A stretch of 64,000 nucleotides of DNA from a virus (taxonomy: Duplodnaviria; Caudoviricetes). The notes under the pieces were generated by a model, which had not been told where the DNA came from, ran no database searches, and saw only the letters and a list, made by a program, of their open reading frames with translations. The translations under genes and the position numbers were made by a program. Position 1 is the stretch's first letter. Every line of letters begins with the position of its first letter. The stretch covers positions 32,001-96,000 of IMG/VR virus record IMGVR_UViG_3300047313_000057. One strand, 5' to 3'. Positions 21,180-62,700 of this stretch are shown piece by piece.

Positions 21180-21553
21180 CAAATATTTGCTCCACGGGCG
21201 AGACGTCGAGCGTCGAGAAACTGCCATTTGACCATCTCGTTTAGTAAGTCCTCACGACTCTTGCTGCTACTTCTGGGTTCGCGTCCCAAGACTTCTTTCG
21301 CAATATCGCGCATTTTCTCTTTGGTGATCGACTTATCTGAACGAAGCTTGGCAATAAGTTCATCAAACTTTGCACTATCTAAGTATGCGCTTTTCAAGCT
21401 ACTGCCGTATCCTGTTCCCCCGGCACTGCTTCCAGATGTGAACTGCCCGAATTCACCGCGGGGGTGCTTTGCCTCTTCGAAATCGGCGTCCATGACTATA
21501 TCGCGCAAACCTGCGTGCGGACTGTCACGTCCACCCCAACGGCCCATTGTCAT
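21179..21553 (-). CDS. Putative head-cargo protein (GRWGGR leader + KHPRG motif + helical domain)
   Basis: Coupled at both ends (ATGA and TGATG); motifs and domain shared with other genes in the window. Confidence 0.7.
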   Translation of the reverse strand: MTMGRWGGRDSPHAGLRDIVMDADFEEAKHPRGEFGQFTSGSSAGGTGYGSSLKSAYLDSAKFDELIAKLRSDKSITKEKMRDIAKEVLGREPRSSSKSREDLLNEMVKWQFLDARRLARGANI

Positions 21554-21924
21554 GCTCCGTTCTGTAACGTGACGCTCACCTTAGTGAAGGTGGACCACTG
21601 TTCAAGCACGGCCGTCGTCAACCAGACAGAGCCGTCCGTGAACGTAATCAGATCGCCGCCCTGCTGCGTCCATCGCACGGCACCCGCGACAGGACCCGGA
21701 AAATAAATGGTACGCGACGATCCTTGGATGTTGAGGGCGTCCAACTGGCGCAAGTCACGGTGCGTCAATTCCTGCACCTGTGCTTGCACTACGATCGGCG
21801 TCGCATAGCTCGGGGTGCGGCTGCCGTCGGCGTTCGTCACGTTGCCGGTCGAGAGCTGGACGGCCACGTTCTGCATGGGGTTGACCACGGCGATCTTGTT
21901 CGCCGTGATGCCGAAGAGGTTCAT
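21550..21924 (-). CDS. Head closure (head-tail joining) protein
   Basis: MNL.GI....I..VNP, AQVQ.L...DL..LD.LNIQG, GGDL....G..WL...VLEQW. Confidence 0.8.
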   Translation of the reverse strand: MNLFGITANKIAVVNPMQNVAVQLSTGNVTNADGSRTPSYATPIVVQAQVQELTHRDLRQLDALNIQGSSRTIYFPGPVAGAVRWTQQGGDLITFTDGSVWLTTAVLEQWSTFTKVSVTLQNGA

Positions 21925-22232
21925 AAAATGATTCTAGTGATTTCTAGGACCGGACTTGCTTCGATCCAACGGTCCATGTTCGTTTTACATGAAAATGTCC
22001 GCGAGAAGTTATGACCGTCACTATAGATGCCAGATATAGTGTACGGACCATCATTCGGAGGTGGCGATGTCGGTGAAGGATTTGCCTGTTGAAGCGCTAC
22101 CATATCCTGCATTTTTTCCCTGTATGCTGCAAGCATGCGCTCTCGTGTGAGAGGGAGCCCCATTATGGTATCCACCTTCGCGTCAAATCCGGGATCATTT
22201 GTAGGAAGCCCCCTAGGAACGAAAGTTTGCAT
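21921..22232 (-). CDS. Hypothetical protein (lower GC)
   Basis: ATG 22232; stop overlaps the next start. Confidence 0.5.
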   Translation of the reverse strand: MQTFVPRGLPTNDPGFDAKVDTIMGLPLTRERMLAAYREKMQDMVALQQANPSPTSPPPNDGPYTISGIYSDGHNFSRTFSCKTNMDRWIEASPVLEITRIIL

Positions 22233-22236
22233 TTTG

Positions 22237-22557
22237 CTAATCTTTCCACTCCACGCACACCCGCGGCAGCCCCGTGTTGCTCTTCTGCCCGTCCTTCCCT
22301 GCGTTCTCGCGCTTCTCGACCACCTTGCCCTTGCGGCCGTTGAACACATAGGTCTTGCCGATGACGAGGCCGCGATAGACCCCGTAGCGCACGGAAATCC
22401 ATTCGCACGCGCCCTGATCGATGGCGAGATTGGGCGAGACGTTCTCGCGCCCGCCGCGGCGGCCGATGGACCGCAGCATGACGCTGAGCGGCGATTCCTC
22501 GGTGAAGTCGCGGGTGCCCGCGTATTCGCTGACGCGCCCGCCGTGCCGGCCGGTCAT
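22237..22557 (-). CDS. Putative head-cargo protein with GRHGGR leader
   Basis: ATG 22557 in an ATGA overlap; begins MTGRHGGRVSEYAGTRD. Confidence 0.65.
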   Translation of the reverse strand: MTGRHGGRVSEYAGTRDFTEESPLSVMLRSIGRRGGRENVSPNLAIDQGACEWISVRYGVYRGLVIGKTYVFNGRKGKVVEKRENAGKDGQKSNTGLPRVCVEWKD

Positions 22558-22793
22558 CTGTTCCACCATTTGCGGCGCTCCGAATAGTCCTTCGGCGGAC
22601 GCGAATACTTGAGTTTGGGCTTCTTGAACACCGGCCCATCGCGCTCTGGCGGATAAACGATGATGCAGCCGTCCGGGATGGTCGGCCAACCGGTGAGGGT
22701 CGGCCAACCGGTGACGGTTGCCCCGGTGTATTGCTGACAACTGCAGCATGTCGCCGTGCACGAACAATGCACCGGCATGGGCCACGCAATCAT
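22554..22793 (-). CDS. Small Cys-rich hypothetical protein
   Basis: ATGA overlaps at both ends; CSCTATCCSC. Confidence 0.5.
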   Translation of the reverse strand: MIAWPMPVHCSCTATCCSCQQYTGATVTGWPTLTGWPTIPDGCIIVYPPERDGPVFKKPKLKYSRPPKDYSERRKWWNR

Positions 22794-23740
22794 GACGCCC
22801 TCGCCAGCGCGATGGTATCCGTGCGCAGGTTCATCTTCACCTCGGCGAGCGCTCGCCCCAGGCAGTGCTGCGGGGTCAGCATCTCCTTGAACTTGGCGAA
22901 CTGCGCCGCGTGGACGCCCTTGTAGCCCATGGCCCGGGTCATCACCGCGAGGTTCATGAAATGATCGAGGTCCTTGGCGAACTTGACGATCTGCGGCCAT
23001 GGCGAATCGTCCGAGGCCGAATGCGGCTCGGCGACCACCGGCCGGCCCAGGCACAGCGCGGTGTTGCACCGTGTCGATGAGATCAGCCCCATCTCGTCGT
23101 ATTTGCGGATCTGCAGGATCACCCGCGCCTCGCGCATGATGCGGTCGCGCGTCACCTGATCGGGGAATGTCGCCTCGACCCGGACCGCCTTCTCAGTGCC
23201 GATGAACCGCGCCAATGCTTTCAGGATCTTCAGCCGGCGCTTGGACAGCGAGCCGAAGAACCCGAAGTCGAACTGCGGCTCGACGCCGTCGGGCGCGCGC
23301 ACTAGGCTCGGCGCATAGCCGAGTTCGATGTAGGCCGCGGGCGCCCATTGATTGTACCAGTCGTGGACGTGGGCGCCCGGCACCAGATAGAGGATCGCCT
23401 CGGCAAACTCGGCGGCACGGGGGAATTCGGACTGCCGCTTGACCATCTCGGCATCGCGCCCGTGGTTGAACCCCTTGGGCGTCGGTTCTTCGGTGGCGAT
23501 GAACAGGAAGCGGGCCCCCTGTGCATGGGCGCGCCGCAGCACCTCGGTCGATCCCGGCGTGAAGCCCTCGACGATGACGTTGATGCCCGAATCCGGCATC
23601 AGGAAGCGGTCGTTCTTCGGCTCCCACACGACGTTGTGGCCCAGCGCCTTGAGCTGGTGGCCGACGATGCCCATCGGGTCTTCGAGGGAGCGCTGGCCTA
23701 ACACGTTATGGTTGAAGAGATTGAATAGAAGTTGTGTCAT
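22790..23740 (-). CDS. Putative GT-B glycosyltransferase (paralog of 31930..32844)
   Basis: FDFGFFGSLS.RR..IL, RD.....A.V.L.I, S..R...AL..G..VVAE pattern. Confidence 0.65.
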   Translation of the reverse strand: MTQLLFNLFNHNVLGQRSLEDPMGIVGHQLKALGHNVVWEPKNDRFLMPDSGINVIVEGFTPGSTEVLRRAHAQGARFLFIATEEPTPKGFNHGRDAEMVKRQSEFPRAAEFAEAILYLVPGAHVHDWYNQWAPAAYIELGYAPSLVRAPDGVEPQFDFGFFGSLSKRRLKILKALARFIGTEKAVRVEATFPDQVTRDRIMREARVILQIRKYDEMGLISSTRCNTALCLGRPVVAEPHSASDDSPWPQIVKFAKDLDHFMNLAVMTRAMGYKGVHAAQFAKFKEMLTPQHCLGRALAEVKMNLRTDTIALARAS

Positions 23741-24468
23741 CGCACGATCATCCTCAGCGCCTGTTGCAGGCGCTCCTCGCGCGGCCATTCCTGCGCCGCG
23801 AGATCGCGCGAAAACGGCCCCTCCATGCCGTCCGTGCAGCTTGCCGCGCACCACCGCGCCCAGATCAGCAGGCGCGGCCGGCGCTGCGGGCGCGGCGCCA
23901 TGTGGCATCCGTGCGGATCGATGAAGAACGTCGTGCCCGCAGGGCCCAAAACCGTCCGAGTCGGGCGCGCCGGGCGGTAGCCGTTGTAATTTTCGCCCCT
24001 GTCCTCGTCGCGATGTGACCCGATCTCGTAGAGATGCGCGCCGTCGTCGAACGATTCCACGTCCGTCCCGTACATGAATGCGACCAGCATGCGCGGGTTG
24101 TCGCGGTCGCGGTGCCAGTCGTGCGTATCGCGATAATGGTGCGGCGACGGCTGGGTGACGAAGGCGCTGATCGAGTAGAGCAGCGCCTCCTCGCCGAAAT
24201 AATCCGCGGCGATGTCGTAGCTGCCGAGCGCCCAGGTCAGATAATGGGGTGCGGCAAGGACCTCATCGCGATCAAGGCCCATCATCGGCCAGCCGGGGTT
24301 TCCCCACACCTCGTCCAGCCGGGCGCGTCGGCGGCCGGACCCGAAGGTATGGTTGTCGCTGCATGGCGCCTGCTTCAAATGGTGCAGAAGGGCTTCGAGC
24401 TTTCCGGCAGACAGCGGCTCTCCGACGGCGGCGCCGTCGCGGCGCAATTCTTCAGCGATATCGGTCAT
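23737..24468 (-). CDS. 2OG-Fe(II) dioxygenase (PhyH-like)
   Basis: WHRD.D, G.H.Y..GSH, GPAGT.F..D..G.H facial-triad pattern. Confidence 0.75.
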   Translation of the reverse strand: MTDIAEELRRDGAAVGEPLSAGKLEALLHHLKQAPCSDNHTFGSGRRRARLDEVWGNPGWPMMGLDRDEVLAAPHYLTWALGSYDIAADYFGEEALLYSISAFVTQPSPHHYRDTHDWHRDRDNPRMLVAFMYGTDVESFDDGAHLYEIGSHRDEDRGENYNGYRPARPTRTVLGPAGTTFFIDPHGCHMAPRPQRRPRLLIWARWCAASCTDGMEGPFSRDLAAQEWPREERLQQALRMIVR

Positions 24469-25073
24469 GTCGGATAATAAGCCGGCCAGAGCTCCAGATA
24501 GCGCGCATGATCGCTGTCGAAATGCCGGTGCTTGTTCGTTTCGATGGCCTCCCGACCCTGATGCTGGATCCGGGCGTCCCGGCAGATCGCAACCGATCCG
24601 CCGGCTTCCCAGCAGCGCATCGAAAAATCGACATCGCCGTAGAAGCTGGCATAGGCCGGATCGAAGAAGCCGATCATGGCGATGGTCTTCCTCGACGTCA
24701 TGCCCCAGCGGGCATAGGGCCGTATGCCGGCCCGGCAGCCATCGTCGCCGACGAAGAACTCGCCGATGAACGGCGGGGAATGCCGGTCGATGAACTCCAT
24801 CATCGTCTCAAGGCAGCGGGTCGTCGGCTTGATTTCGTCGGACAGCCACGCGACGTGCGTGCTTTTCGAGCGGGTGTGGTCGAGCGCGAGCGCGATCGAG
24901 GCGGCGCTGCCGATGCGGTCGTCGTGCACGTTGGTCGCGCGCTTGACCTTGAACGAGGGCGAGGCGACGACGACGTCGAGGGTGATCGAACTGCAGGCCC
25001 GCAGGTCGTCCACGAGAATCTGCGTGAGCCGGCGCGAGCGCGCCGCGGGAATGATGACGGAACAGAGATTCAT
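24465..25073 (-). CDS. Glycosyltransferase family 2
   Basis: SVIIP, IGFFD.....Y.D.DFS.R...AG motifs. Confidence 0.75.
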   Translation of the reverse strand: MNLCSVIIPAARSRRLTQILVDDLRACSSITLDVVVASPSFKVKRATNVHDDRIGSAASIALALDHTRSKSTHVAWLSDEIKPTTRCLETMMEFIDRHSPPFIGEFFVGDDGCRAGIRPYARWGMTSRKTIAMIGFFDPAYASFYGDVDFSMRCWEAGGSVAICRDARIQHQGREAIETNKHRHFDSDHARYLELWPAYYPT

Positions 25074-25840
25074 CTGATCGCCATGATGGCCGAAGGATCG
25101 TGGTTTTGCCGGATCGTGCAGTCATCCGTCACGAGATGCGCATGAGCGCCGACGCTGACGTTGACGTTGAAGTCCTGCAAGACCGCCGTGTTCCAGCCCC
25201 CGCCATAGCGCGGTGCCCAGCGCGCGACGAAGCGGTGATAGTCCGCCGGCTCATAGAGTTTCGACTTGCGCACGACGTCGACCAGGCGGCCGTCGGTGTC
25301 CTTCGACAGGAAGATCGCCGGCCGGCTGGAAAAGGCACAGAAGCCGCCGAGGTTCCACACGCGCATGCCGAGATCGCAATCACTGAAGCCCTGCCGGTAA
25401 TCGCCGTCGAACCAGCCGGCAGACACCGCCCCGGCGCGCCGCATCATCGGGAAGTTCGGATAGTACAGGCCGAAGCAGGTCCCGGCCCAGTCGCTGCCGT
25501 CATGGCGGTCGTAGCGCAGGCCCATCACCAGCGGCGTGGGACGGGCGTTTTCGAGTGCCTCGAATTCCGGGATGAGCCATTCGTCCCAGCCATCGCAGAA
25601 CTCGAAATCGTCGGCCAGCGCAATGACGAAATCGCCCTTTGTCCATTGCAGTGCGGCATGCTGAGCCGCAGCCGCCCCGCGCGGTTCGTGTTCCAGCACC
25701 CATACGGCGGACGGGGGCGGACGCTCTGGGCTGACGACGACGATCTCATGGCTGCAGCGCGTGCCTCGTTCAATGCTGGCAACGCAGCGGGCGAGGTCAT
25801 GCGGGAAGATCGACGGGATGATGATCGAGACTACGGGCAT
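25070..25840 (-). CDS. Glycosyltransferase family 2
   Basis: VSIIIP, EIVVV, GDFV..LADD, GWFD..Y..G..D.DL..R motifs. Confidence 0.8.
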   Translation of the reverse strand: MPVVSIIIPSIFPHDLARCVASIERGTRCSHEIVVVSPERPPPSAVWVLEHEPRGAAAAQHAALQWTKGDFVIALADDFEFCDGWDEWLIPEFEALENARPTPLVMGLRYDRHDGSDWAGTCFGLYYPNFPMMRRAGAVSAGWFDGDYRQGFSDCDLGMRVWNLGGFCAFSSRPAIFLSKDTDGRLVDVVRKSKLYEPADYHRFVARWAPRYGGGWNTAVLQDFNVNVSVGAHAHLVTDDCTIRQNHDPSAIMAIR

Positions 25841-26735
25841 TCAAGTCTTGAACCTTTGCCAGGACATCCCGCCAGAACACGCGCGGATGATGGTGCTCTG
25901 TCACATGGGCGTGGAAGCGTCCGGCCATATCCCTGAGCGCATCGTCATTGCCGCGAGCCCAGGCGATCTTCTGCAGGGCGTCTCCGGGATCCTGGTATTG
26001 AAGGTAGAGGTCGTCCGGAAACCACTTGGCTGTGCAGGCGTTGGCCTTTTCGAGGCAGCATGCTCCAGCCCAGCCTGCTTCGATCACGCGCCCTTTGACG
26101 TGCATGCCCCGGCCGGTACCCATGATAGGATGATTGGGGACGATTTTGCAGCCACCGAGAAAGCGTCCCATGTCGTGGGGCGACATCCCGTGACGGCGAT
26201 CAAGCTGCGCATGATCGATCAGCACGTGCACGAAGGCGATACGCTCCGCATGACCGCCGTCCTCTCCGGCCATGCCGAGAAATGTCGGCCTCGAATCCCA
26301 GGCCATCGGCACGAATAGTTCCGGGTCCGTCGGCGTCAACTTGACGATCCCGTTGGTAAAGCCGGCGAGCGGCGTGTTGAGGTTCCCATCGATGCTGACC
26401 TGTGCCGAAAAACATTGCTCCCTGTCGTACCGGATCAGCCAGTCCCACCAGTAATCATCGCCCGCATCGCAGCAGATGAGAATCGTTGGGGCCAGATCAT
26501 GGATTCTTTTGAGGATGTCCACGGACGGAACTGGACGATTGTAATACTGCTCCACCGCTCCGACATAGATGACGATCTCCGGCTTGAGCAACTCGACCAG
26601 CGCGACAATCTCGCTCTGACGGTCGTGCGAATAGATGTCGTATCGTTCGACATGGCAGACGTTGCCGGTGCAGATCCACGAGCGCCAGAAATTCTCGCAG
26701 TTCATCGAATGGCTGACGAGGAACAGGGCTTGCAT
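25797..26735 (-). CDS. CgeB/YkvP-like GT-B glycosyltransferase
   Basis: HVKGRV.E.G.AGA..LE....WF C-terminal motif; paralog of 27346..28233. Confidence 0.7.
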   Translation of the reverse strand: MQALFLVSHSMNCENFWRSWICTGNVCHVERYDIYSHDRQSEIVALVELLKPEIVIYVGAVEQYYNRPVPSVDILKRIHDLAPTILICCDAGDDYWWDWLIRYDREQCFSAQVSIDGNLNTPLAGFTNGIVKLTPTDPELFVPMAWDSRPTFLGMAGEDGGHAERIAFVHVLIDHAQLDRRHGMSPHDMGRFLGGCKIVPNHPIMGTGRGMHVKGRVIEAGWAGACCLEKANACTAKWFPDDLYLQYQDPGDALQKIAWARGNDDALRDMAGRFHAHVTEHHHPRVFWRDVLAKVQDLNARSLDHHPVDLPA

Positions 26736-26749
26736 GCGTCAGACCTCGA

Positions 26750-49940: not shown

Positions 49941-52052
49941 TCAGGTAAGCCGGATGCGACCGGCGTCGGGATAGCGGTCGAGGAACGAGCCGACCTGCAC
50001 GGATTCGTCGGCGGCGACCCGTGCCGCAAGCCGTGGCTTGGCACCGGGCTTGGGCTGCATCTCGAGGATGGTGCGCAGCGCACTTGCATGAACGCGGTCG
50101 ACGCCGGGGACGCCGAGCATCTTGAGTGCCTTGCGGTAGACCTGCTCGTCGGAATCAAACGCCATGGCGAGGTTGCCCACCCACGGCTGGACGATGCGCT
50201 CCGCGTCGCGGATATCGCGCTGGATCTTGCGCTCGGCTTCCGCCGCCGCCCGCAGCGCCTTCTCCATCTCGTCCTGGGTGATGTACTTGCGGTCGCCGGA
50301 GACCTTGCCTCCGGGGGTGGGGTTGCCCTTGAATGCCGGGGGCTGGTCTTTCGCGGTCATGTGGTCTTCCTTCTCCTCATGTTCTTCATCGGTGGCAGCT
50401 TCGCCTTTCCGCACGGCGTCTTCGGGATCCTCAGCGGCACCCTCATGGGCAGCGCCGAGTTTCTCCAGCTGCTCCTCGCCCTTGGCGTTCGGCTCGCCTT
50501 CGTCGGCCTCGACGGAGGCCGAACCGATGCCCATCATTTCGCAGACGCGGGCGAAGTCCTCTTCCGAAAGCTTGCCGCGGAGGAAAGCCTTGAGTTCCTC
50601 GTTGTCGCCCTCGTCCTCATCGACGGGGCCTGCGGGCTTGGCAATCTCCGCGCCGTTCGGCCCCTTCGGCGCGGGCTTGCCTGCGGGCTCGATCCCGGGC
50701 TGCCCTGCCTCCTGCCCCGGCTCCAGTCCAGGCGTCTCCTGCGGCTCCAGCACGGCAGTGTTCTCCATCGACTTCTGGATGCCCGGATCGACCGCCTCGT
50801 CGGCATCATCGATCTCGCCGCCGTGCGCCTCCAGCATGTCGAGGAATTCGGCGACCTCGCCCAGCGAGGTATCCCGGGCGAGCTTGCCGCGGCACGCCTT
50901 CTTGAGGGCCGCAGCCACCGCCGGCTTGCGGTCGCGCAGGTCTTCGGCCGTCAGGCCGCACAGGATGGGCCGCAGGTCGATCCCCTTGTCGGCGGCGAGC
51001 TTCGACCTCACGTAGGGAGCGAGAACCCCGATCGCGATCGCCGCGGTTCTCGTCATGGGCTTCTTCGCCATTTTCAGGTTCTCCTTGGAATCGCCAACCA
51101 CGACGTCGGCGCCGGCCCTTCCTTCGCGGACCAGGGCGACGTGATTTCCGACGATCGCCGTCATGACGCCGTCGTATTTCTCACTCTCGTAAATGCCGGG
51201 CTTCATCACCGGCTTGTAGTGGTAGCCGCAGCTCAGTTCTTTCTGCTCGCCGCTCACGATCGCCCTGATGGCGTCGCCGTCCCAGATCTTGAGACTGCAG
51301 CGCAGGAACGGCGCTTCGAATACGCAGTCCGATCCGGTCGTGCCGACCACATATTTCTTGGCCTGGTCGGCGTAGTCTTCGGCAAAGACCGGGACGTGCT
51401 GGGACAGGACGGGCAGATTGCAGAACGAAGGCGCGGCCTTCGCCAGTTCCTTGGGGTCGCGCAGCAGCTGATAGATGCGGCCGGGATCAAGCCCCAACTC
51501 TTCGGCGCCGGGGATTTCTCGACCGATGTAGGGGTTCACCCGTGCCGCGGAGATGTTGGTGATCTCGACGTCGAGGCGGCCGTCCTGGTCGATCTCGCGG
51601 ACCGACGCGCGGTCAAGGGCCAGTCTTTCAAAAGGAACAAACGGAAGTTCCGCCAATTTAATTGCTAACGCTCTAACATCTACTGCAAAAGGAAAACCAT
51701 GATTATCAAGATCATCAGCTATCTTTAGCAAAGCTGCTGAAGTATTTACTTTGATCGCTTTCTTTTCCTGACTAATAATCCCTTGCTTAGCAGCCCTAGT
51801 GCGCAATACACCATAACTACGCTTCTCCACCAAAGCTCTTGTCAAAATCGGAGTCGGCACCGGCACGCCCCAGTAGCCGCCCACCGCGGCCTCCGTGCCA
51901 AGCACCGCATCGAACACGATGCCGTGCTCGTCCACGGTCCAGGCATGCTCGACGGGCACACCGTCAGCAAGGACGGCGTAGCCCTCGACGTAGGTGCGCC
52001 CGGTCGCCAGCGCGTCATGCGCCGCGCGCCGGCAGGCATCGATGGCGGGCAT
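49941..52052 (-). CDS. DUF2213 head maturation protease/scaffold with extra N-terminal domain
   Basis: R..D.DGRL, V.PY.G.EIP, ELSCGY, NHVALV..GRAG core; acidic scaffold-like C-half; N-terminal YVEGYA...HAW domain. Confidence 0.85.
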
Positions 52053-52053: not shown

Positions 52054-52941
52054 TCAGTCGCGGTTATGGAAGTTGAAGTGGAATATGAGGCATGACAAAT
52101 CGGCCCCGGATTTGCGGAACTCCGACAGATCGACGAGCACCGGCTTGAACCCCATCACCTCGATCGTGCGCTCCAGCCGCTTGCGGCTGTCGGCTTTCTC
52201 CTGACCCGCCTCGTCGCGCGGGATATCGACCAGGATCTTGTCGTTGAGCCGCACGCCGTTGGTCCAGCCGTCATAGACGCAGTCCTTGGGGACCGGAATC
52301 AGATCGAGCACCGCCTCCAGCTTCTTCACGTCCGCCGGATCGAACACCGAGACCGAGGCCAGCGCCGCCTCGCCCGTGATCGGGAAGAATGAGCAGTCGA
52401 AGTGGTAGAGCTTCTCGTCGGTCATCCGGACCGGGATGACGTTGCAGCCCAGCTCTTCGGCCATCCAATCGTAGGTCTTGGCGTCGGTGCGGATGCCGCA
52501 GCCGCCGGCATAAAGGTTCCCGTGCAGGTACTTGAGATCCGCCTCGCCCTCCCAGAAATGCGGCGACTGCGCGATCCTGTAACCGAGGCCCTCGAAGAAC
52601 GCCGCCCCGACCTTCTCCTCGCCGCGCCGCGGCCTGGACTTGAAGTTCGACAGTGCCACCGTGCCGTCATGCGGCAGGTACGCGCCGATGTTGGCGACGA
52701 ACGGCAGGTCCTGGAGGTCGTCCTGCCCGTAATCCGGCATGACCATCACGAGGGCATCGTCCGCGGTGAGCGCCTGGTAAAGATCGCGCCATTGCGAGAA
52801 CGCCTTCTCGTAATCGTAGGGCTCGCCCTCGGTCTCCTTCATCAGCGGATTGTTGGCGGCGCGGTTGTCGACCGTATAGGGAAAGTTCATCATGAAGGCC
52901 GGCGTATCGAGCTGCGAAGGCAGCATCACCCGGTTGGCCAT
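52054..52941 (-). CDS. Amidinotransferase/dimethylarginine dimethylaminohydrolase family protein
   Basis: N..M, QW..L, D..F.AN, R.GE, EGE.D, YH.D, SEF.K.G....C pentein motifs. Confidence 0.85.
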
Positions 52942-55001
52942 TTCCCCGCGTCCCGGTAGAGCCATATCTTGCCGATCCGCTCCGGCTGGAAATACTTCTT
53001 GACGAGGTCGATGACGGCGCGCGGATCGAACGCCGCACAGGAAAACAGGTCGAAGTAGAGGCACCACTGGTCGTCGTCGCCGTGGAAGGTGATCGTCGAT
53101 GTCGTGATGATCTGCACCGCGGTCAGGCCGCGCCCCTCCTCTGGATTATCGACGCGGACCACGATCAGGTCGCCGATCGGCTTCATCTTGGTGATGGCGA
53201 GCAAATCTTTGAAGAACGCCCGCACCGTCGTCTCGTCGTCGATCCCCTCGTTGCACCCGGAAATGTCGAGGATGAGATGATAGCCCCAGTGCTTTCCGGC
53301 CTCTGACTTCTTCGGATTGTCGGCGACTTCGATCGGAGCTTCCAGCGTACCGGTCTCATCGCCTGTCATGAAGGCGCGGCCGTGGCGGAGCACAAAACCC
53401 TCGACCGAACGCGGGCGGCGCCGCGCCTCAAGTTCGAGGCAGCCTCTGACCAGTTCGTCCTTGGCTTTGGCGCGCTTGGATAATTCCTTTTCTGCCCCTT
53501 TCGACGCGTTCTCCTTCATCCATGCAAGCGTTTTGCGTATCGTATCGTCGAACTCGGCCTTTCGCTTGGCTTCGTCGGGCTCCATGTTCGACTCGCGGCG
53601 CGCCGCGCGCACGTTAAGCATGTTCCACTTGGCTATCTCGTCGATCATGCCCTTGCGCGTTTTCTCGCGGGTATTGGGGTGGCCCATGCCGGCCGAGATT
53701 TGCTTCATCGTTTCGAGGCTGATGCTTTTGTCCGCCTTCAGCTTCGCAAGCAGTTCATCGAACTTGGCCGGGTCGGCGTAGTTTTTGTAAAGCCCATCGA
53801 TGTAACTTTGCGAACTCGATACCGCCGGTTTTGGCTTCGCCTCCTTTTCCGCCATCGGCTTCTTCGGTTTCACGCCTTTGTTGCTCCCGATAGGAGTCTT
53901 TTCGCTCTTGACCTCCCTTGTCGTTGCACTCACGTTGAGCGCAGCGCTCATGAGCGTGTCTTTTGGAATCTGCTCGGAAAGCTCGTTGATCCAAGCTGCC
54001 AAGTCTTCCTTCGTCGGCTCGCCTTTGAACTCGGCCTGATAACCCTTCTTGGTGAGCTCGCTGCCAAGACTAGCGGCAGCCTCTGGAACCTTCAGCTTGC
54101 GCCGTGTCAGCAGGAGATAGGAAATCTCCTTCGCAGGGCCGCTTATTTCGGCCTTCGGAGGCTGCTTTTTTGATTTCCCTTTTCCATGCAGTATCTGCTG
54201 GAGTTCGACGAAATGCTCCGGCGACAGCTTGTCGCGAAGGAAATCCTCAAGGGCCTGTATCTTCGCTGCTTGGCCGCCGCTCTTCTTTTCGGCCTTAGCC
54301 TTCGCGGTTTTCTCGGTGCCAGCGTTGCCCCCGCCTCCGCCGCCTGACGTAAACTGCCCGGCATTGCCCGGCTGCCCGCGCGGATGTTTACCTTCCTCCC
54401 AGTCGGCATCCGATGCGGCGAGAACTTCGTGCTCTTCATCAAAGGCCGCGTCTTCGCCGCGTGCGAACGATTCATCAATCGCCCGCTCGCCGTCTTCATT
54501 ATCGTCCGGCGGATACCTGATCGTGTCGCGCACCGTATTGCCGCGATCCTCCCGGCCATCCTGCCCCATCCCCTTGATGGTCGAGACAAGCCCCGGATGC
54601 GTTGGCTTGGGCGGCGCCTCCAGCGGCACCCAGGCATGGCCGTTGTGCTCGCCGTTGAGCCGCGGCTCCAGCGCCTTCGGCACTTGAACCATGAACGTCG
54701 TATAATCGACGTCGGGGGTCGCGGTATGGCCGACCATCTTCAGGGATCCCGGATCGTTGATGACGATGCCGGTCTCCTCCTTGAGTTCCCGCATGGCGGC
54801 CTGGACCGGGATCTCGTGCGGCTCGACCCCGCCGCCCGGGATGCTCCATTCGCCCGGGTGATCGCCCTGGCCCGAGCGGCGCAGGAACAGCGCCCGGCCG
54901 TCAGGTGTAACCAGCAGGATGCCGGCGGCGCGCATCGCGGCATCGGCGGCCTTGCGCGCCAATGGAATGCCGGCATTGGCTGCGGTCGCTGCTGCGGTCA
55001 T
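52926..55001 (-). CDS. Polyprotein: NUDIX hydrolase + KHPRG motif + helical domain + SpeD-like pyruvoyl decarboxylase
   Basis: Nudix box GGVEPHE....AAMRELKEETG; C-terminal WGYHLILD..C, I.TS.IT.H, Y.DLFSC..FD; internal in-frame ATG at 53369. Confidence 0.85.
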   Translation of the reverse strand: MTAAATAANAGIPLARKAADAAMRAAGILLVTPDGRALFLRRSGQGDHPGEWSIPGGGVEPHEIPVQAAMRELKEETGIVINDPGSLKMVGHTATPDVDYTTFMVQVPKALEPRLNGEHNGHAWVPLEAPPKPTHPGLVSTIKGMGQDGREDRGNTVRDTIRYPPDDNEDGERAIDESFARGEDAAFDEEHEVLAASDADWEEGKHPRGQPGNAGQFTSGGGGGGNAGTEKTAKAKAEKKSGGQAAKIQALEDFLRDKLSPEHFVELQQILHGKGKSKKQPPKAEISGPAKEISYLLLTRRKLKVPEAAASLGSELTKKGYQAEFKGEPTKEDLAAWINELSEQIPKDTLMSAALNVSATTREVKSEKTPIGSNKGVKPKKPMAEKEAKPKPAVSSSQSYIDGLYKNYADPAKFDELLAKLKADKSISLETMKQISAGMGHPNTREKTRKGMIDEIAKWNMLNVRAARRESNMEPDEAKRKAEFDDTIRKTLAWMKENASKGAEKELSKRAKAKDELVRGCLELEARRRPRSVEGFVLRHGRAFMTGDETGTLEAPIEVADNPKKSEAGKHWGYHLILDISGCNEGIDDETTVRAFFKDLLAITKMKPIGDLIVVRVDNPEEGRGLTAVQIITTSTITFHGDDDQWCLYFDLFSCAAFDPRAVIDLVKKYFQPERIGKIWLYRDAGKWPTG

Positions 55002-55387: not shown

Positions 55388-55525
55388 GACATCCTCGATG
55401 GAATTGACGGGACGGCCGGCAAGCCCCTTTGCTTGCGATTGCGAACCTCACGACCGTCCCTGCTATGTGTCGCCGTTATCGAGGCGACGCCGAATTTCTC
55501 AACTCTTCGTCACGACATCCTTGAT
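55379..55525. repeat. 21-bp imperfect direct repeat (55379..55399 and 55505..55525) enclosing a hairpin-rich spacer
   Basis: 18/21 identity; stem 55409..55418 pairs with 55451..55460. Confidence 0.65.
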
Positions 55526-55710: not shown

Positions 55711-55852
55711 CGCACAAACCTCGCCGGTTCATTTCCCATAAAACGTCGTTACGCAGTTCCCAGACATCTTCGCCATCGACTTCACGATCATACAGGCGCT
55801 CTTCATATTCTATCAGAGCTGCATCGGTCCAACCGTCCCAATCTGCCATCAC
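55637..55852 (-). CDS. Small acidic hypothetical protein
   Basis: GTGA overlap with the MuF stop. Confidence 0.4.
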   Translation of the reverse strand: MMADWDGWTDAALIEYEERLYDREVDGEDVWELRNDVLWEMNRRGLCGDHANPAARHQPPDGDDHRGGPIA

Positions 55853-56682
55853 GTCAATCCAGGCACCACAGGCTTGCTCACGCAACGGCAGTTAACCAAA
55901 AACCCGGGTTGTATCCACATTTTTTCATCGGGATCCCACATGCCGCGCGCAATGTCGAACGTGCGTCCGTTCATCGCCACATGCGCCGGCCGCGGCGTCT
56001 TGCCGGCCGACGAATGCAGCCACACGGCTTCCGTGATCCCGATTTCGAGATGCCGCACCCGGCTCAGCGCCGCCGTGGCCTTGTTGGACTGATCGCGGGA
56101 TATCAGCGCCGCCCGCCGCTTCGTAGCGCCGAATTGCCTCTGCAGCGTCTTTGCGAGATCGTCGAGCTTGCGCCCGGTCTGTACCGAACGCGCCACATGG
56201 CCTTCCACCGCGCGCAGGTACTGTTCCGGGATCGAGCGGATCAGCGCCACGTTCTGCTCGACCGTCGCCCCCAGGACGTCGTTCTGGGCCCGGCTGAGCC
56301 GGAACTCGACGGAAAACCCGGCCTTCTTCAACGCAGCCTTGAGGGCGGCATCCGACCGATCGGCGACGCTTTGCGCGAACCAGTCGGCGAGATCGTCGGC
56401 AAGGATCGAGAACCGGCGCCGCCAGCGGCGCCCGAGCGCGGCGACCGTGCGCATCAGTTCGGCGATCGGGGAGTCGTCAGTCGCAAGAGACTGGGACAAT
56501 TCCACGACTTCCGGGGGGTTCTTCTTATAGGCCGCGGAGAGCCAGTAGAGGACGCTGCCGTGCATCTCCGCGATGAGAGCGGTGAGCCGGCGGCGGTATT
56601 CGGACTCGATGCCAGCGTTGGCGCGGATGGGGCGGAGCGTCTTAGGTTTGGGGCGCGGCCTAGGGCGGGGCGGATTTGGCAT
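55849..56682 (-). CDS. Head morphogenesis protein (MuF/SPP1 gp7)
   Basis: NV.LI.SIP.QY, RA.LI.RDQ..K, W.HS.....RP.H, PG...NCRC. Confidence 0.9.
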   Translation of the reverse strand: MPNPPRPRPRPKPKTLRPIRANAGIESEYRRRLTALIAEMHGSVLYWLSAAYKKNPPEVVELSQSLATDDSPIAELMRTVAALGRRWRRRFSILADDLADWFAQSVADRSDAALKAALKKAGFSVEFRLSRAQNDVLGATVEQNVALIRSIPEQYLRAVEGHVARSVQTGRKLDDLAKTLQRQFGATKRRAALISRDQSNKATAALSRVRHLEIGITEAVWLHSSAGKTPRPAHVAMNGRTFDIARGMWDPDEKMWIQPGFLVNCRCVSKPVVPGLT

Positions 56683-56962
56683 TGGCCTCCGCCTTGGCGT
56701 CCTCTTCATTCGCGGCCACGTCCAGGAGCAGCTGCATCGCGATGCCCTCGGTGCGCCCGCGGTAGAGCCAGTCGAGCGTCAGGCCGGGAACGGCGTCGGC
56801 GAGCTTGTCGGCGACCTCGACCGGCAGCAGCACCCCGGCGCTTTCGTGCTTTGCCATGTGCGCGGCGGCGATGTCCAGCGTCTGCGCCAGTTCATGGCGC
56901 CCCAGCCCGAGAAGCCTCCGGATGGCCTGCAATCTTCGTCCGACGGCTGCCCTGTCGATCAT
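56660..56962 (-). CDS. Xre-family HTH protein
   Basis: VG.RL..IR...GL...ELA..L, E.G, LDWLY.G. Confidence 0.75.
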   Translation of the reverse strand: MIDRAAVGRRLQAIRRLLGLGRHELAQTLDIAAAHMAKHESAGVLLPVEVADKLADAVPGLTLDWLYRGRTEGIAMQLLLDVAANEEDAKAEANAKSAPP

Positions 56963-57033
56963 GCCGACCCGATAGCATGACCGGACCGGGATGTCATCAG
57001 TACAACTTATGCGTGTCCTGGCTGTCGAATGCG

Positions 57034-57258
57034 TTAACTAGCCAATTCAAGCCATCGCGACCGCGATGGGAGACGTGAACGACTTCCTTGTTGAGAAAGC
57101 TTCCGCATTTCGCGACGATAGACGATTGAATTGACGGAACGTCCGTCGATTTCACACTTTTCGACGCCGGATGGATACCGAACACGCAAGAACTCGTGGC
57201 CGTGTATAAGCTGATACGACTTCATAGGACCCATGATGACAAAATACTTCTGATCCAT
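57034..57258 (-). CDS. Hypothetical protein
   Basis: TGATG coupling. Confidence 0.45.
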   Translation of the reverse strand: MDQKYFVIMGPMKSYQLIHGHEFLRVRYPSGVEKCEIDGRSVNSIVYRREMRKLSQQGSRSRLPSRSRWLELAS

Positions 57259-57671
57259 CAATACAACCTCTCCACTTCGCCATCGAAGGCGTTGCAGCAC
57301 GCCCGCGGCTTGACCCGAGCATCCAGCGCCCAGATCTTGGGAAACGCCTTGTTCAACTGGCGGAACAGATCGCAGGCTTTGTCGCCTCGGTCAAACGCGT
57401 TGCAGTTCTCGCAGCGCACGTCGCCGCGGACAAACCCGACTTCCTGCTTGGTAAGCGCGCCGGTCGGGCGCACCCGCGGCGCATCCTCGCTGCGGATCGG
57501 CGGGCCCTGCACATATTCGATGCACGTGTCGCCCTCAAGGACTTCGTCGTTCGGCTGCAGCCAGTAGCAGCGGTCGATGTCCTTGAGCCACAGGACGCAG
57601 GTCTTGCATTGCGCGAACTTCGGTGCGTCGCCGACGGGCTCGAGGTAGCCGAAGGCTGAGCGGTCACGCAT
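57258..57671 (-). CDS. Protein with two HiPIP-like four-Cys metal-binding modules
   Basis: CKTC..W....C...C..Y and CENC..F....C...CC..F. Confidence 0.6.
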   Translation of the reverse strand: MRDRSAFGYLEPVGDAPKFAQCKTCVLWLKDIDRCYWLQPNDEVLEGDTCIEYVQGPPIRSEDAPRVRPTGALTKQEVGFVRGDVRCENCNAFDRGDKACDLFRQLNKAFPKIWALDARVKPRACCNAFDGEVERLY

Positions 57672-58068
57672 GGCCCAACGCGCCGGGCTGATCTTCCCAT
57701 GTGCCACGTTTGCCGCTGTAGCGCGTTTCATGCGGTGCCGCGCTGCGCATGATGTACTGGCCTACCGCCGTCCAGATCATATTGTTGAAGCGCATCTCGT
57801 CGCAGACCAGGGTGCCACGATCACGCTTGCCGCCGCAGAATGTCAATGTTGCGCAGACGTGCCCCATGCCGATCGGTTCACGCTTTGAGGTATGCGTTGC
57901 CACCCGCAACAGCCCGTGCCGCCCTGCGAGCCGGTAGTACGTCGCCTCGCTCTTCATTGAGGCACAGACGTGGACGAACCCGGCCACCTTGAGAACCTCA
58001 GCGGCTCTCGCGGCAAGCAGCAGGCAGTTCTGTCGCGCCTCCGGGGGCTTGGGTCGCTTGCGTGGCAT
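57664..58068 (-). CDS. Hypothetical protein
   Basis: S..SEA.YY......LRVA.H motif. Confidence 0.6.
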   Translation of the reverse strand: MPRKRPKPPEARQNCLLLAARAAEVLKVAGFVHVCASMKSEATYYRLAGRHGLLRVATHTSKREPIGMGHVCATLTFCGGKRDRGTLVCDEMRFNNMIWTAVGQYIMRSAAPHETRYSGKRGTWEDQPGALGHA

Positions 58069-58082
58069 TTTTCCGGGAGCGG

Positions 58083-58220
58083 TTAACCTTGATCTACCCC
58101 GCCGATGTTACCCTTGTTCTTGCTCGCGTAGAAGACCCGCTCGCCCTTCTCCGGTCCGTATTGCTCCTTCATCGACTCCATGATCTCCTCGCCCTTCGGC
58201 GTCAGCGGATCGGTCGCCAT
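58083..58220 (-). CDS. Small conserved phage head-region protein (45 aa, not in the ORF track)
   Basis: MATDPLTPKGEEIMESMKEQYGPEKGERVFYASKNKGNIGGVDQG; TGATG coupling. Confidence 0.75.
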   Translation of the reverse strand: MATDPLTPKGEEIMESMKEQYGPEKGERVFYASKNKGNIGGVDQG

Positions 58221-58552
58221 CACCTCAGTTTTTTTTTAACTCCCGGCGGCTGGTCCGACGTCATCTTGTGGTCGGTCTTCTTGGCCATGTTCGGAGATCC
58301 GGGCTTTTCGCCGGGCGGTTTGGAATTGCCGGAATCGCGCTTCTCGCCCAGCATCTCCTTGTTGACGCCGCTCTTGTTGGCGGCCGGCTTGAAGCCGGAG
58401 ATCTTCTCGCCCTCCAGCTCGCGGCCGACCGAACCGGTCTTTGGCGCCGAGGTGAATGCCGGTTTGCCCAGGGTCTCGCCTTGCGCTGCGGGGCCGACGT
58501 CCTTGCCGATGTGGGGGCTTGCCCTGCCGCCCCAGCGTCCTGTACCTGCCAT
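58220..58552 (-). CDS. Putative head-cargo protein with GRWGGR leader (Lys/Gly-rich, disordered)
   Basis: GGAG RBS; begins MAGTGRWGGRASPHIGKD. Confidence 0.65.
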   Translation of the reverse strand: MAGTGRWGGRASPHIGKDVGPAAQGETLGKPAFTSAPKTGSVGRELEGEKISGFKPAANKSGVNKEMLGEKRDSGNSKPPGEKPGSPNMAKKTDHKMTSDQPPGVKKKLR

Positions 58553-58555
58553 GAT

Positions 58556-59002
58556 CTATTCTCCCGGATGCTTGCGGTAGTGCAGCTCCTTGCGCTTGTC
58601 GGTCTCGTCCTCCAGCGCCTTGGCGTTCTCTTCGGCGATGTACTTTTCCGCCTCCTGCTGGGTGTTGAACTTCTTGACCTTGTCGGCCGGCCCCTTTTCG
58701 GGATCGTTGCCGGCGTCGGAATCGACGACATGCCACGGCTGGGACTCGACGGCGACGTAGCGCAGCTCGAAGCGGGAGCCGTCGCGGGCCTGGTCGTAGC
58801 CGCGCACGTACTCGGGCGACATGCCGCTCGCGTGCTCGCCCATGGCATGCGGCGGGCGGCCGGTGCCCTGCGTGCCGGAGAACGGCGCCGCCTTGGCATC
58901 GAGGCGGTGGCCCTTCTCGGTCGCGTTTTCATCGCGGGCGACGCGGCGGAAGTCACGGCTGCCGGCCGTGCCGCTCGATCTGCCGCCCCATCTGCCGGTC
59001 AT
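58556..59002 (-). CDS. Putative head-cargo protein with GRWGGR leader
   Basis: AGGA RBS; begins MTGRWGGRSSGTAGSRD. Confidence 0.65.
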   Translation of the reverse strand: MTGRWGGRSSGTAGSRDFRRVARDENATEKGHRLDAKAAPFSGTQGTGRPPHAMGEHASGMSPEYVRGYDQARDGSRFELRYVAVESQPWHVVDSDAGNDPEKGPADKVKKFNTQQEAEKYIAEENAKALEDETDKRKELHYRKHPGE

Positions 59003-59014
59003 TCGTCTGTCGTC

Positions 59015-59203
59015 CTACAACAACTGGGCCAGCGGCTGCGTCGCAATCCACGCTGCGGCAAGTTGCAGATCGACCACCGTCTGCGTCGTGACCGTGGTGT
59101 TCTGCATCAAGGCGGCGAGGGTGATCGACTGACCGGCTTGGTAGACCTGCTGCTTCGCCTGGAACATCGCGCAGACCTGCTGCGGATTGGGAACTGTGGC
59201 CAT
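59015..59203 (-). CDS. Small Gln/Thr-rich protein
   Basis: AGGAGG RBS. Confidence 0.6.
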   Translation of the reverse strand: MATVPNPQQVCAMFQAKQQVYQAGQSITLAALMQNTTVTTQTVVDLQLAAAWIATQPLAQLL

Positions 59204-59212
59204 GGTTGCCTC

Positions 59213-59425
59213 CTAGAACAGCATCTCATAGAGCTGCTGGTACTGCGCGTTCGTCAGCCCGGCGCCGCCGGTCTGGATGTTGCCGCTGGTGTCGGTCGTC
59301 AGCGCCGGGACGTCAACCGCCTGCAGATACGTCAAGAGCTGGTTGAGGCCCATCGTGGTGCCGCCGATGCCCTGCGTATTGACGCGGTTCTGCACCGCGG
59401 TGATGACGCTTGCCGTGAAGGCCAT
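59213..59425 (-). CDS. Small Gln/Thr-rich protein
   Basis: AAGGAG RBS. Confidence 0.6.
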   Translation of the reverse strand: MAFTASVITAVQNRVNTQGIGGTTMGLNQLLTYLQAVDVPALTTDTSGNIQTGGAGLTNAQYQQLYEMLF

Positions 59426-59430
59426 GGTGA

Positions 59431-59733
59431 TTACTCCTTGTGAACCGTCTCAGACGAAGGGGAGGTCTCTTCGCCGGGCGTGCCGCCGTAGTTCTGTGCC
59501 GCGGCGACCTCGGGGCTGTGATCCTCAGCGTCGTCCTCTTCGTCTTCATCATCGAAGAGGCCCTCGTCGCCTTCCTCTTCCCCGTCAGGATCACGCGTCG
59601 ACAGCCACGCCGTTTCACCGTCATCGTAGATGATCTTGATCAGATCGGCGTCGTCCTTCTCCGCTGGCTCAAAGTCCTCGGTAAGATACGCCACGGTCGC
59701 CTCGCGGCCATCGATGGTCTGGCGTTCGATCAT
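59431..59733 (-). CDS. Small acidic protein coupled to the portal-peptidase gene
   Basis: ATGA overlap; very Asp/Glu-rich. Confidence 0.6.
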   Translation of the reverse strand: MIERQTIDGREATVAYLTEDFEPAEKDDADLIKIIYDDGETAWLSTRDPDGEEEGDEGLFDDEDEEDDAEDHSPEVAAAQNYGGTPGEETSPSSETVHKE

Positions 59734-62700
59734 GGTGCGCCCAACGATGAAAAGTTGCCGTGCTTGCCCCAATGCTTATCGTATAACTTTTCCACGGCCT
59801 TGAACAGATCTTCCCACGCCTTGTGGCTCTGCTTCTCTTCCTTGCCTCCGATTTCGGTCGAGATGCCTTTCGTCTTGCGCAATTCCTGATAAGCTTGATA
59901 CCTGTTGCCGTACGGCGTCGGCAGCTTGCCGTCCCGATCCAGCAAATAGCTCATCTCGGCCAGCGTCTCGTTGACGGCCGTATCGAAGCTGCACTCGCCC
60001 TTGTGATAGGCATGCCAGTATTCGCGGCTGTAGGCGCTCACCCCATCGGTCAGTGAGAACAACTGGTGACGCTTGCTGCGGAACACCTCGTGCATCTTCT
60101 GATAAATTTCATACTCCTTCTTGAGTTCTTTATTCTCCAGAACTCTGGTTGAAAGAGACCCGTCCGGCCTTAGCCACGGGTTGGGACGCACAATGCGGGT
60201 AGTGAATTGCTTGACGCCGCCGGGTCCCTCGCTCTCCTCAACGACGGTCCCTTCCTCCTTCGCCAAGCGATTCAGCGTCTGCGAATTTATTGAATAATTC
60301 CTCTCCACGAAATTCCACTTATCGTGCATCACCTCGTGGGCCAGGACGCCGCGCACCGTCGCGACGGACGCGGTCTTCTCGTAGATCTTTATCTCCCCCG
60401 TAGAGTTATTGTAAGTGCCGGCGGCAAAACATGTGCGTCCATTCAACTCGAACGGCCATATTTCATCAACAACACGGATCCTGTCCAGATTCTTAAACCC
60501 GCGATTTCGTCCGACCTCGCGCGCAGCCTTCTTGATCTCCGCAGCATATTCGGTAGTGCTGGCCGCCTCTGTATGCGCTTCGCCGTACGACGACCCAAGC
60601 TTATGCAGCCGCTGCCTGAAATCCCTGGCCTTCAGATAATCGCCGTTCTTCTCCGCCTTCTTCAGCGCGGCCACGTACGAATCAGCCAGCTTCTCCTTCA
60701 GCTCCAGTTTCTTGTCCTTGTCGGACTCAGCGCGGATCGCCTTGCGGATCTCTGTTCGCTCGCGCTCGGTTCCAGGCCGCGGCCCTGAAGGCACAGACTT
60801 CTTTTCCGCGCCACCGCCCCCGCCGGGCGACTTGGCAAACTGCCCCTTGTTGCCCGGTTGCCCTCGCGGGTGCTTCGCCGGGTCCCAGTCGTCTTCGGCC
60901 CCGTCATCCTCCGCGAGCGCTTGATCGAACACCGCGTCCGCGATCAGCCCCGCCTTGCGCGCCGCAATCCGCATCTTGAGATAATTGCGGTTGGCCTCCG
61001 ATCGTTGGGCGGCGCGCTCATGGAACGGACCCTGCCCGTCCTTCCACGCCTGCTGCCGTGCATCGGCACGTTCATAGACCGGACGATCGCGCAGGAGATG
61101 CCCCAGCTTGCGGGCAGCGACGCGTTCACGGAACGGGGACAGGCCGACGACATTCTTCTGGACCGCGGCAAGGTGCCGTTCTCCAGGTTCCGCTTCTTCC
61201 TCCCAGGTGACCTGATCGGGGAATTCGTCTTCTTCTTCGCCGGAAGCACCGCCGTGCCCGCCGGGCTTGGGCAGCTTGGTTGCGCCAGCCCCTTCCGGAT
61301 CAAGACCCGCCTCCTCTTCGGCCCGCAGGTCCGGCATATCCTCGACGTCGATCGAGGCGTAGCGGCTGTCGGGATCGGCCGCCAGCGTCTTCCTCACCTC
61401 GTACTGCGACAGCACTCCGCCGTCGATGTACGCCATGTCGGTCTGCGCCTTTTTCTGCATGAGGTCGGCGCGCTGCTGTTCATCCATCTCGCGCAGCGGC
61501 TCGAACTCGAACACGATGGTGTCGTCGATGTCGCCGAAGAGATGCAGCTGGACGAAGTCCATGACCGTGGTCAGCGGCGCCCGCATCCGCTTTTCCTGCT
61601 GGGCGAGAATCCAGTCATAGAACATGCGGATGCCGCCCTCGTCCGAGGCGTTCAGTCCGGTCGGCTGGATACCCAGGAGCTTGACGATGGGGATACTGGC
61701 GACGCTCGCCATCTGCTCCTGGCTCTGCGCCTGCAGTTCGTGCAGGCCGGCGGTCGGCGCCGAGACGTTGGCGAAGTCCTCGCTCTCCTTGTCGAGCGCC
61801 ATCAGTCCGCGGTTGTCGCGGAGATCGTTGAACATGGCGATCCGGCGGAACAGCTGGTCGCCGGCATCGGTGAGCGAGGTGCCGAGATTGGTCTTGAGGA
61901 CGAACACGGTGAAGGAATGCAGGAGGTCGGAGACGCTCTGGCGGGTGCGGATCCAGTTGTCGACATAGGGCCGGGCCATCTGCGTCATCGACAGACCGCC
62001 GAACGAATAGGCGGGTTTCAAGAGGTCCGGCACCTCGCGGCCGACGAACTTCAGCAGACGAGTATGATGGACCTGCTTTCCCAGGACAAACCACGTCTGC
62101 GGCTGATACCAGTCGTCGCGCAAGGGATCGATGGCGGTGTAGTCGATCGGATAGACCCATACCGGCTCGACGGCGCGCAATGCCTTGAGATGGCCCTTGC
62201 CGAACTTGGCGCGGCTGACCTCGTTCCTTCCATCGCCGAGCGATGTCTTGAGTTCGTCGCGGTTCTCGGTCGCCCCGGTGTCGATGTAGAGGTGGCTGCG
62301 GCCGAACCATTCGTCCAACTCGATGCACTTGCGGAACACGTCGCGGGCCCGCAGCCGCTCCAGCTCGGCCATGATCTCGCCGATGCGCTGCTCACGGCCG
62401 CCGTCCTCGTTGCTGGTGGACGAGATGTGGATCCACTTGCGGGTCATCTCCGTCGCAAGGATCTCGCCGAACTTGCGGAACTCGGGCCGCTGCGCCTGGC
62501 CGGCCAGATTCGCATAGCCGGGGAAGACCAGCCCTTCCTCGAAGATGCCGCCGATGAACGGCGCCGCCCACGAGGTCTCCGCGTTGCCCCAGTTGACGTC
62601 CCAGTTGGTCTGGCCCCAGCTCATGCCCTGGTCCAAGGCCATGTGCAGGGACTTGTCGGCCGGCATCGCATTGGGCGGGAATTGCGGCAGGCGGAACGGA

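Follow-up and report, generated by a model that had tools for sequence, protein, structure and literature searches.

A Widespread Peptide Tag That Appears to Mark the Start of Cargo Cassettes Among Head-Associated Genes of Tailed Phages

Three Copies of a Short Peptide in Late Genes of One Phage

The DNA considered here, hereafter referred to as the window, is a stretch of 64,000 nucleotides (bases 32001–96000) from the 118,244-bp IMG/VR record of a tailed phage, IMGVR_UViG_3300047313_000057, which is rated complete and has direct terminal repeats of 127 bp. The GC content is 57–66% and the minus strand carries nearly all genes, among them the three that contain the subject of this work, the short motif KHPRG..GQF. 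A preliminary description made from the letters of the window alone had reported this motif in three proteins, and it is clear that the observation is real. Six-frame regular-expression scans, with loose patterns included, find exactly three copies in the window and in the whole genome alike, all of them on the minus strand, in frame, and inside long late-gene open reading frames (ORFs) with high GC at third codon positions, whereas 200 triplet shuffles give an expectation of 0.055 for the three KHPRG observed.

Copy 1 of the tag, as we call the motif together with its short prefix, occupies residues 646–667 of a portal fusion protein, P0003 (60837..60902, minus strand), where the prefix GAEDD leads into the core W-D-P-A-K-H-P-R-G-QPGNK-G-Q-F (W651–F667, window 60837–60887) and then a Gly linker. 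Copy 2 lies at residues 196–217 of a NUDIX polyprotein, P0002 (54351..54416, minus strand), with the prefix ASDAD, the core W-E-E-G-K-H-P-R-G-QPGNA-G-Q-F (W201–F217, window 54351–54401), and a run of six Gly residues. The third copy, at residues 20–38 of a small protein, P0001 (21440..21496, minus strand), has the prefix VMDAD and the shorter core F-E-E-A-K-H-P-R-G-EF-G-Q-F (F25–F38, window 21440–21481), followed by a Gly/Ser linker. The translations thus bear out the earlier statement that each copy comes after an acidic stretch (..SDAD, ..AEDD, and ..VMDAD) and before a Gly-rich linker. Copies 1 and 2 share 52% identity across 44 residues, acidic lead-in included. At the DNA level the three copies have only short exact runs in common and differ at synonymous sites, so that the conserved entity is the peptide. 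Through the tag, three late genes that are otherwise unrelated are linked in one predicted set of head-internal proteins: a portal with a tagged zincin, a NUDIX domain with tagged helical domains and AdoMetDC, and a leader followed by a tagged helical domain.

The portal fusion (1035 aa; 59730..62837, minus strand) is the first gene of the head module in transcription order and consists of a Phage_portal_3 core at residues 116–467 (PF06381, 253 bits against a gathering cut-off of 33.8), an acidic linker, the tag, Lys-rich helices, and a zincin-like metallopeptidase at approximately residues 763–1030, whose HEVMH motif falls at residues 834–838 (window 60324–60338). An alignment of 17 sequences of this zincin family contains both the HExxH motif and a downstream Glu, with H195, H199, and E318 invariant and E196 and E322 nearly so. 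AlphaFold predicts a confident fold for the zincin core, for which Foldseek returns local matches to the minimal zincins selecase and abylysin at a probability of 0.89–1.0 with E-values that are not significant. The polyprotein (691 aa; 52926..55001, minus strand) comprises NUDIX at residues 23–135 (PF00293, 74.6 bits against a cut-off of 21.1), an acidic linker, the tag, the Gly linker, a helical region, a four-helix domain, and an AdoMetDC-like domain at residues 575–676 (AdoMet_dc, PF02675, 52 bits against 25). The small protein (21179..21553, minus strand; 124 aa, more likely 122 aa) is made up of a GRWGGR leader, the tag, a linker, and a four-helix domain.

Distribution and Consensus of the Tag

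IMG/VR was scanned with a DNA pattern encoding W[DEN]Ex[KE]HPR[GD] only. The pattern matches at least 119 IMG/VR stretches, and 135 of the 137 distinct contexts among the matches listed also carry the unsearched element G-x-[FWV] 2–9 residues further on, after which most of the listed matches continue into a Gly/Ser-rich stretch. Applied to one genome per bacterial species, the same pattern yields at least 115 matches, with G-x-F in 66 of the 115 listed; those lacking G-x-F look like out-of-frame chance matches and thus serve as an internal control. The true bacterial hits are prophage-like ORFs of Firmicutes, Bacteroidetes, Actinobacteria, Cyanobacteria/Melainabacteria, Planctomycetes, Desulfovibrio, Spirochaetes, Elusimicrobia, and Proteobacteria. 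This motif search in phage proteins, which the preliminary description had proposed from its view of a single phage, reveals a tag common to phages of many phyla. The consensus of 137 instances is W-[DE]-E-[SGA]-[KE]-H-P-R-[DG]-x(2-9)-G-[KRQ]-[FW], followed by positions rich in G, S, T, and A.

Other searches lead to the same kind of protein. An exhaustive HMMER search with P0001 as the query returned proteins of 7334 and 5313 residues that contain 15 and 16 tags, respectively. When 5.8 billion proteins were searched with a profile, the 135 that matched had the architectures already seen among the pattern-scan hits, and none showed a conjugative-element hallmark. Cultured phages also carry the tag, among them Pseudomonas phage Orimi01 (portal, acidic linker, tag, and an ADP-ribosyltransferase-like domain), Pseudomonas phage Orisa (portal, tag, and ART), and Xanthomonas phage PhiXhv-5 (portal, tag, and a further domain). 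A tblastn search with a 57-aa tag segment found nothing at E up to 1. With a 30-aa consensus-like segment and E up to 10 it found eight records, seven of which are portal genes or unnamed genes at the portal position, the eighth (E = 6) being doubtful.

The Tag at the Edge of Exchangeable Cassettes

The position of the tag within its proteins is strongly asymmetric. Among the matches listed it falls within the first 60 residues in 36 of 93 complete ORFs, many of the N-terminally tagged ones beginning M-x(1-6)-W-D-E, and within 70 residues of the C-terminus in only 2 of the 93. Pfam domains in the 500 residues upstream of the tag are portals of four families (17 cases), DUF2213, ART-PolyVal, NUDIX, MuF, and Acb1. 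The catalog of downstream domains, also called for in the preliminary description, is one of diverse cargo in which ADP-ribosyltransferases are the most frequent (12), together with topoisomerase IB, MuF, 2H phosphoesterase, PBECR1, NUDIX, SAM lyase, RelA/SpoT, poly(A) polymerase-like domains, and head proteases; Acb1 and zincins are likewise among the cargo domains with the tag at their N-terminal edge. Portals occur only upstream of the tag (17 vs. 0 downstream). The genes annotated next to free-standing tagged genes code mostly for portal, terminase, MuF, protease, and capsid proteins.

A comparison with the closest relative of the polyprotein, P0208, places the edge of a cassette at the tag. 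Identity is 66% in the NUDIX part, which extends as far as P0002 residue 196, and 55% in the part that begins at residue 515, and P0208 joins NUDIX directly to the AdoMetDC part. Since both flanks meet directly in P0208, residues 197–514 of P0002, from the tag through the helical domains (53460..54413, minus strand), are an insert, and its left breakpoint coincides with the tag prefix. As P0208 keeps NUDIX and AdoMetDC together, this pair looks like the conserved core. At its N-terminus P0208 has a different cassette consisting of a tag and an ADP-ribosyltransferase, and in several NUDIX relatives the tag comes straight after NUDIX and is followed by other cargo.

The ORF positions, the one-sided distribution of portals, and the edge of the insert agree with the earlier idea that the motif belongs to the part downstream of it, as the N-terminal edge of the cargo. 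At the level of predicted proteins, these comparisons show that tag, linker, and cargo behave as one unit, which may be free-standing, in tandem, or behind portal, MuF, and DUF2213 proteins, and that the tag is a conserved peptide that marks the N-terminal edge of cassettes moving among head-associated genes of tailed phages. The synonymous differences among the three copies show that this peptide is under selection. The coincidence of cassette breakpoints with the tag and the highly mosaic architectures could also mean that the tag is mainly a recombination joint, an in-frame junction through which head genes swap cassettes and whose peptide itself does little, much as pre-toxin junction motifs are presumed to ease exchange in polymorphic toxins. 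We regard this as very improbable given that the copies in this phage share so little exact DNA and differ synonymously, that conservation is at the amino-acid level across phyla of very different GC, and that the motif is found only at the left edge of the cassettes.

Relation to Known Systems

The system to which the tag belongs is that of the phage-type polyvalent proteins, with their portal- or MuF-fused effector domains, described by Iyer, Burroughs, Anand, de Souza, and Aravind (Iyer et al., 2017; PMC5512222), and it overlaps with the MuF polymorphic toxins of temperate phages (Jamet et al., 2017; PMC5576092). The tagged proteins share with the polyvalent proteins a repertoire of portal, MuF, NUDIX, ADP-ribosyltransferase, 2H phosphoesterase, PBECR, and zincin domains, the location of the genes in the head module, and a proposed logic of capsid packaging, injection, and metallopeptidase processing (PMC5512222). 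In contrast to that account, one tag stands before every cargo module here, giving the chains a repeating grammar, and we found no mention of a conserved junction peptide in the main text of PMC5512222. The likeness to MuF polymorphic toxins consists of a head-protein N-terminal domain followed by a variable C-terminal effector (PMC5576092), the main text of that paper giving no match for a linker, a conserved motif, cleavage, or a pre-toxin. The MuF protein of the present phage itself, an SPP1 gp7-like minor head protein (286 aa; 55849..56709, minus strand), does not have the toxin architecture, as its MuF domain lies at residues 168–277 with no extension and no tag. As expected for polyvalent proteins, at least two unrelated domains are combined both in P0002 (NUDIX, helical, and AdoMetDC-like) and in P0003 (Phage_portal_3 and zincin), and the portal, MuF, DUF2213 protease, cement, and major capsid genes are adjacent on one strand.

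Several better known peptides are similar in outline. The capsid targeting sequence of T4 is an N-terminal peptide of about 10 residues on unrelated packaged internal proteins and is linked to the prohead protease; cleavage at an L/I-x-E site takes it off, and its target is the T4-type scaffold core. The tag resembles it as a short N-terminal peptide on unrelated cargo, a likeness that is functional only, and differs in having no sequence similarity, in appearing to stay with the cargo, and in occurring internally as well. A T4-type capsid targeting sequence was thus rejected on the grounds of sequence and position rule, the head module here being of the DUF2213/MuF type. Pre-toxin motifs (VENN in CdiA, DPxGL in Rhs) also combine a short conserved peptide and a flexible linker at the boundary of variable cargo, and the cargo-loading peptides of encapsulins dock cargo inside an HK97-fold shell. 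The tag is unlike both in sequence, delivery machine, and side of the cargo, and its binding to a capsid would be a prediction.

A profile of the tag has no match among PDB sequences at E up to 10, and Pfam searches of 101 tag windows at E up to 1 give no common family, only five families each with one weak match to a single window. In the literature we found no paper with the motif strings in a relevant setting. The tag therefore seems to be new within a known system of polyvalent proteins, with no describing paper, Pfam model, or PDB entry found, and this novelty is provisional because the literature, Pfam, and PDB libraries are incomplete.

Possible Recognition and Processing of Tagged Cargo

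We favor, with moderate confidence, the reading that a widespread tag of some 20 residues, with KHPRG..GQF as its version in this phage, starts cargo cassettes and is recognized inside the assembling head. The cargo itself is presumably packaged in the capsid. AlphaFold models the tag region as flexible, with pLDDT values of approximately 50–64 in P0001 and 36–54 in the portal tail, and the domains that follow as confident. Such a flexible tag could act as a recognition peptide for cargo loading or retention, and could let the proteolytic machinery of the head, either a DUF2213 protease or a portal-borne zincin, handle the cargo. Cleavage would most likely fall within the phage-specific prefix, just before the aromatic residue, so that released cargo would begin with the tag in the same way as the free-standing proteins. 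In the present phage, three cuts would follow, made by the twelve zincins on the portal or by the DUF2213 head maturation protease-like protein (703 aa; 49941..52052, minus strand), an untagged candidate processing enzyme: the zincin would be freed from the portal, NUDIX split from the helical and AdoMetDC part, and the GRWGGR leader stripped from P0001.

The prefix of the tag is specific to the lineage. In multi-tag proteins, positions −4 to −1 are 29–40% identical within a protein and 11–18% identical between proteins, where the pairs compared are those with unrelated sequence far upstream. Many copies have a lineage prefix of roughly [AV]-[LM]-D-[AG]-[DEG], to which only copy 3 (..VMDAD) conforms fully in this phage. 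In addition, HExxH occurs 73 times in 163 tagged proteins compared to 9 expected; as a rule it is found in the final module, and that module carries a tag of its own. The portal tail of the present phage belongs to this zincin family. Both the prefix and the HExxH motifs are hints of recognition or processing. They would also fit a tag that is a protease recognition and cleavage site only, as in viral polyproteins, with the embedded zincin or the prohead protease cutting every tag to free the domains and with no role in docking or delivery. A phage-specific prefix would correspond to protease subsites, an approximately 8-fold enrichment of HExxH, typically in the C-terminal module, would supply the enzyme, the repetition of a single tag before each module, up to 16 in a chain, fits serial cutting, and autoprocessing of polyvalent proteins by metallopeptidases has been proposed (Iyer et al., 2017; PMC5512222). 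We nevertheless judge a role in cleavage alone to be unlikely, since many proteins start with the tag 1–8 residues after Met, where cutting would release nothing, at every natural gene boundary the invariant core falls with the cargo, and tagged portal fusions occur with no zincin nearby. A 17-residue core that is near-invariant across phyla while the protease families differ would also be unusual for a substrate.

The MuF/gp7-like protein is one candidate partner for tagged cargo in this phage. MuF was detected in 7 of 10 tag-bearing records, which makes it a frequent candidate and not a universal one at the sensitivity of the search, and we rejected it as the universal partner on this count. 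A zincin was rejected in the same role, as the head modules of Orimi01 and PhiXhv-5 contain no HExxH despite their portal-tag-cargo order.

A number of points weigh against recognition of the tag inside the head. None of the candidate partners is present in every case, the families of portal and protease differ among tagged phages, and one of the records lacking MuF is rated 100% complete. When AlphaFold models the tag and zincin in one chain, the tag is of low confidence and outside the active site, and so does not dock in cis, a result that speaks neither for nor against the tag as a substrate. Cargo fused to a portal should need no loading signal, yet the tag is kept, and the similarity of prefixes within a protein could arise from duplication or gene conversion and not from co-evolution with a partner. 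More generally, we infer packaging, cleavage, and the binding partner all from sequence.

The tag is conserved across phages of very different phyla whose portals and proteases are not the same, as might be expected of a universal target, and this raises the possibility that the tag acts after injection by binding a conserved host component or DNA, or by recruiting refolding factors, so that ejected effectors would work where the phage enters. The preliminary description had suggested DNA binding by the motif, and this part of its proposal gains nothing from our results: nothing found points to it, acidic residues flank the core, and the core resembles no known motif of the DNA-binding or hub-binding kind. 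The targets of the cargo domains are unrelated to one another, head proteases and MuF that act at the assembly stage are tagged as well, and the 135 profile hits include no polyvalent architecture of the conjugative-element type. Taken together, these features make an action at the entry site seem quite doubtful. We also offer, tentatively and as a possibility that we would not bet on, a broader form of the favored reading, in which the tag serves tailed phages as a portable and near-universal address label and any protein bearing it with a flexible linker would be loaded into the capsid and delivered with the DNA. If this were true, the proteins injected by uncultured phages could be read off with a simple motif search, and proteins of choice could be packed into capsids by attaching the tag.

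Packaged and injected phage proteins include many anti-defense enzymes and toxins that are hard to spot from sequence, and a tag at each cargo start would allow them to be picked out of metagenomes at little cost. It would also give clean boundaries for dividing giant polyvalent proteins into modules, and provide a concrete peptide with which to study loading, processing, and release in phages beyond the T4 and P22 models.

Leader, Helical Domain, and Gene Context

The gene for P0001 has two ATGs (window 21547–21560), the first of which overlaps the upstream stop codon (ATGA). A GGAG box lies 1 nt before the first ATG and 7 nt before the second (21547), and the second gives the N-terminus MGRWGGR.., the same as in homologues. 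On the basis of the Shine-Dalgarno spacing of 7 nt and the homologue N-termini, we favor the second ATG; a public gene call starts the protein at Met21 and loses the leader. The GRWGGR leader (21527..21544, minus strand) also starts two ORFs of the head module at 58556–59002 and 58220–58552. The link between leader and tag put forward in the preliminary description stands insofar as both are present in P0001 and recur together elsewhere. It does not extend to the two other GRWGGR proteins, which have no tag, so that leader and tag are separable signals. In P0001 and its homologues, even those with no tag, the leader closes with an [LM]-D element like that of the prefix; the proteins at 58220–59002 have neither the tag nor this element.

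The preliminary description was also correct about a shared domain of about 70 aa. Copy A (P0001 residues 49–124; 21182..21409, minus strand) and copy B (P0002 residues 400–473; 53583..53804, minus strand) are 39% identical with an E-value of 2e-15, and the structure prediction it had suggested gives, for copy A, a confident four-helix unit with AlphaFold pLDDT above 90. Foldseek returns nothing for this domain at E 0.001 or better. The C-terminal domain of clamp loaders was considered for the fold and rejected, the best Z of 6.1 in a wide search being within noise for helical bundles. A protein atlas searched with the P0001 model returned only unnamed Pseudomonadota clusters. The architecture of leader, tag, and helical domain recurs in other metagenomes, one example being P0011, which stands alone, has all three elements plus the linker, and is collinear with the middle of P0002.

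In eight four-helix homologues (P0026, P0041, P0056, P0087, P0068, P0084, P0058, and P0090) variant N-terminal peptides take the place of the tag, with the forms N-H-D-P-x-x-G-E-F, E-P-R-D-x-R-G-R-W, and G-H-G-S-N/D-P-R-G. Their placement suggests that they may be diverged forms of the tag, in which case the H-P-R pattern undercounts the family. A further family of about 225 aa (P0018, P0021, P0029, P0030, P0033, and P0039) has the four-helix domain with a conserved ..K-[SP]-W at its C-terminus, an unrelated helical N-terminal half, and no tag, and may correspond to the Pseudomonadota clusters of similar length from the protein atlas.

The head module runs from the portal fusion through several small ORFs, including the two that begin with GRWGGR, to the MuF gene, the polyprotein, a DDAH-like amidinohydrolase-fold protein (52054–53067), the DUF2213 gene, and, downstream of it on the minus strand, the cement protein and then the major capsid protein. 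The DDAH/amidinotransferase-fold gene overlaps the end of P0002, where the AdoMetDC-like domain sits (52974–53279). A Megablast search of the head region against cultured phages found no match. The gene for P0001 lies about 26 kb beyond the head module on the same strand, in the neck module, between a head-protein gene (phrog_1912) and a Neck1/tail-completion gene, with a tail sheath gene downstream.

In L004, the one distant relative that a portal-based scan of IMG/VR found, the zincin family appears as a separate gene of 389 aa (9641–10810) that follows a 509-aa ORF (8122–9651), probably a portal, with no tag at the locus, an arrangement resembling the portal fusion in two pieces and minus its tag. 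The genome of the present phage has one other zincin-like motif in a long ORF with a plausible hydrophobic context, in a 242-aa HExxH ORF (..A-I-H-E-A-G-H-V..) on the minus strand at genome position ~16474, about 15.5 kb before the first base of the window.

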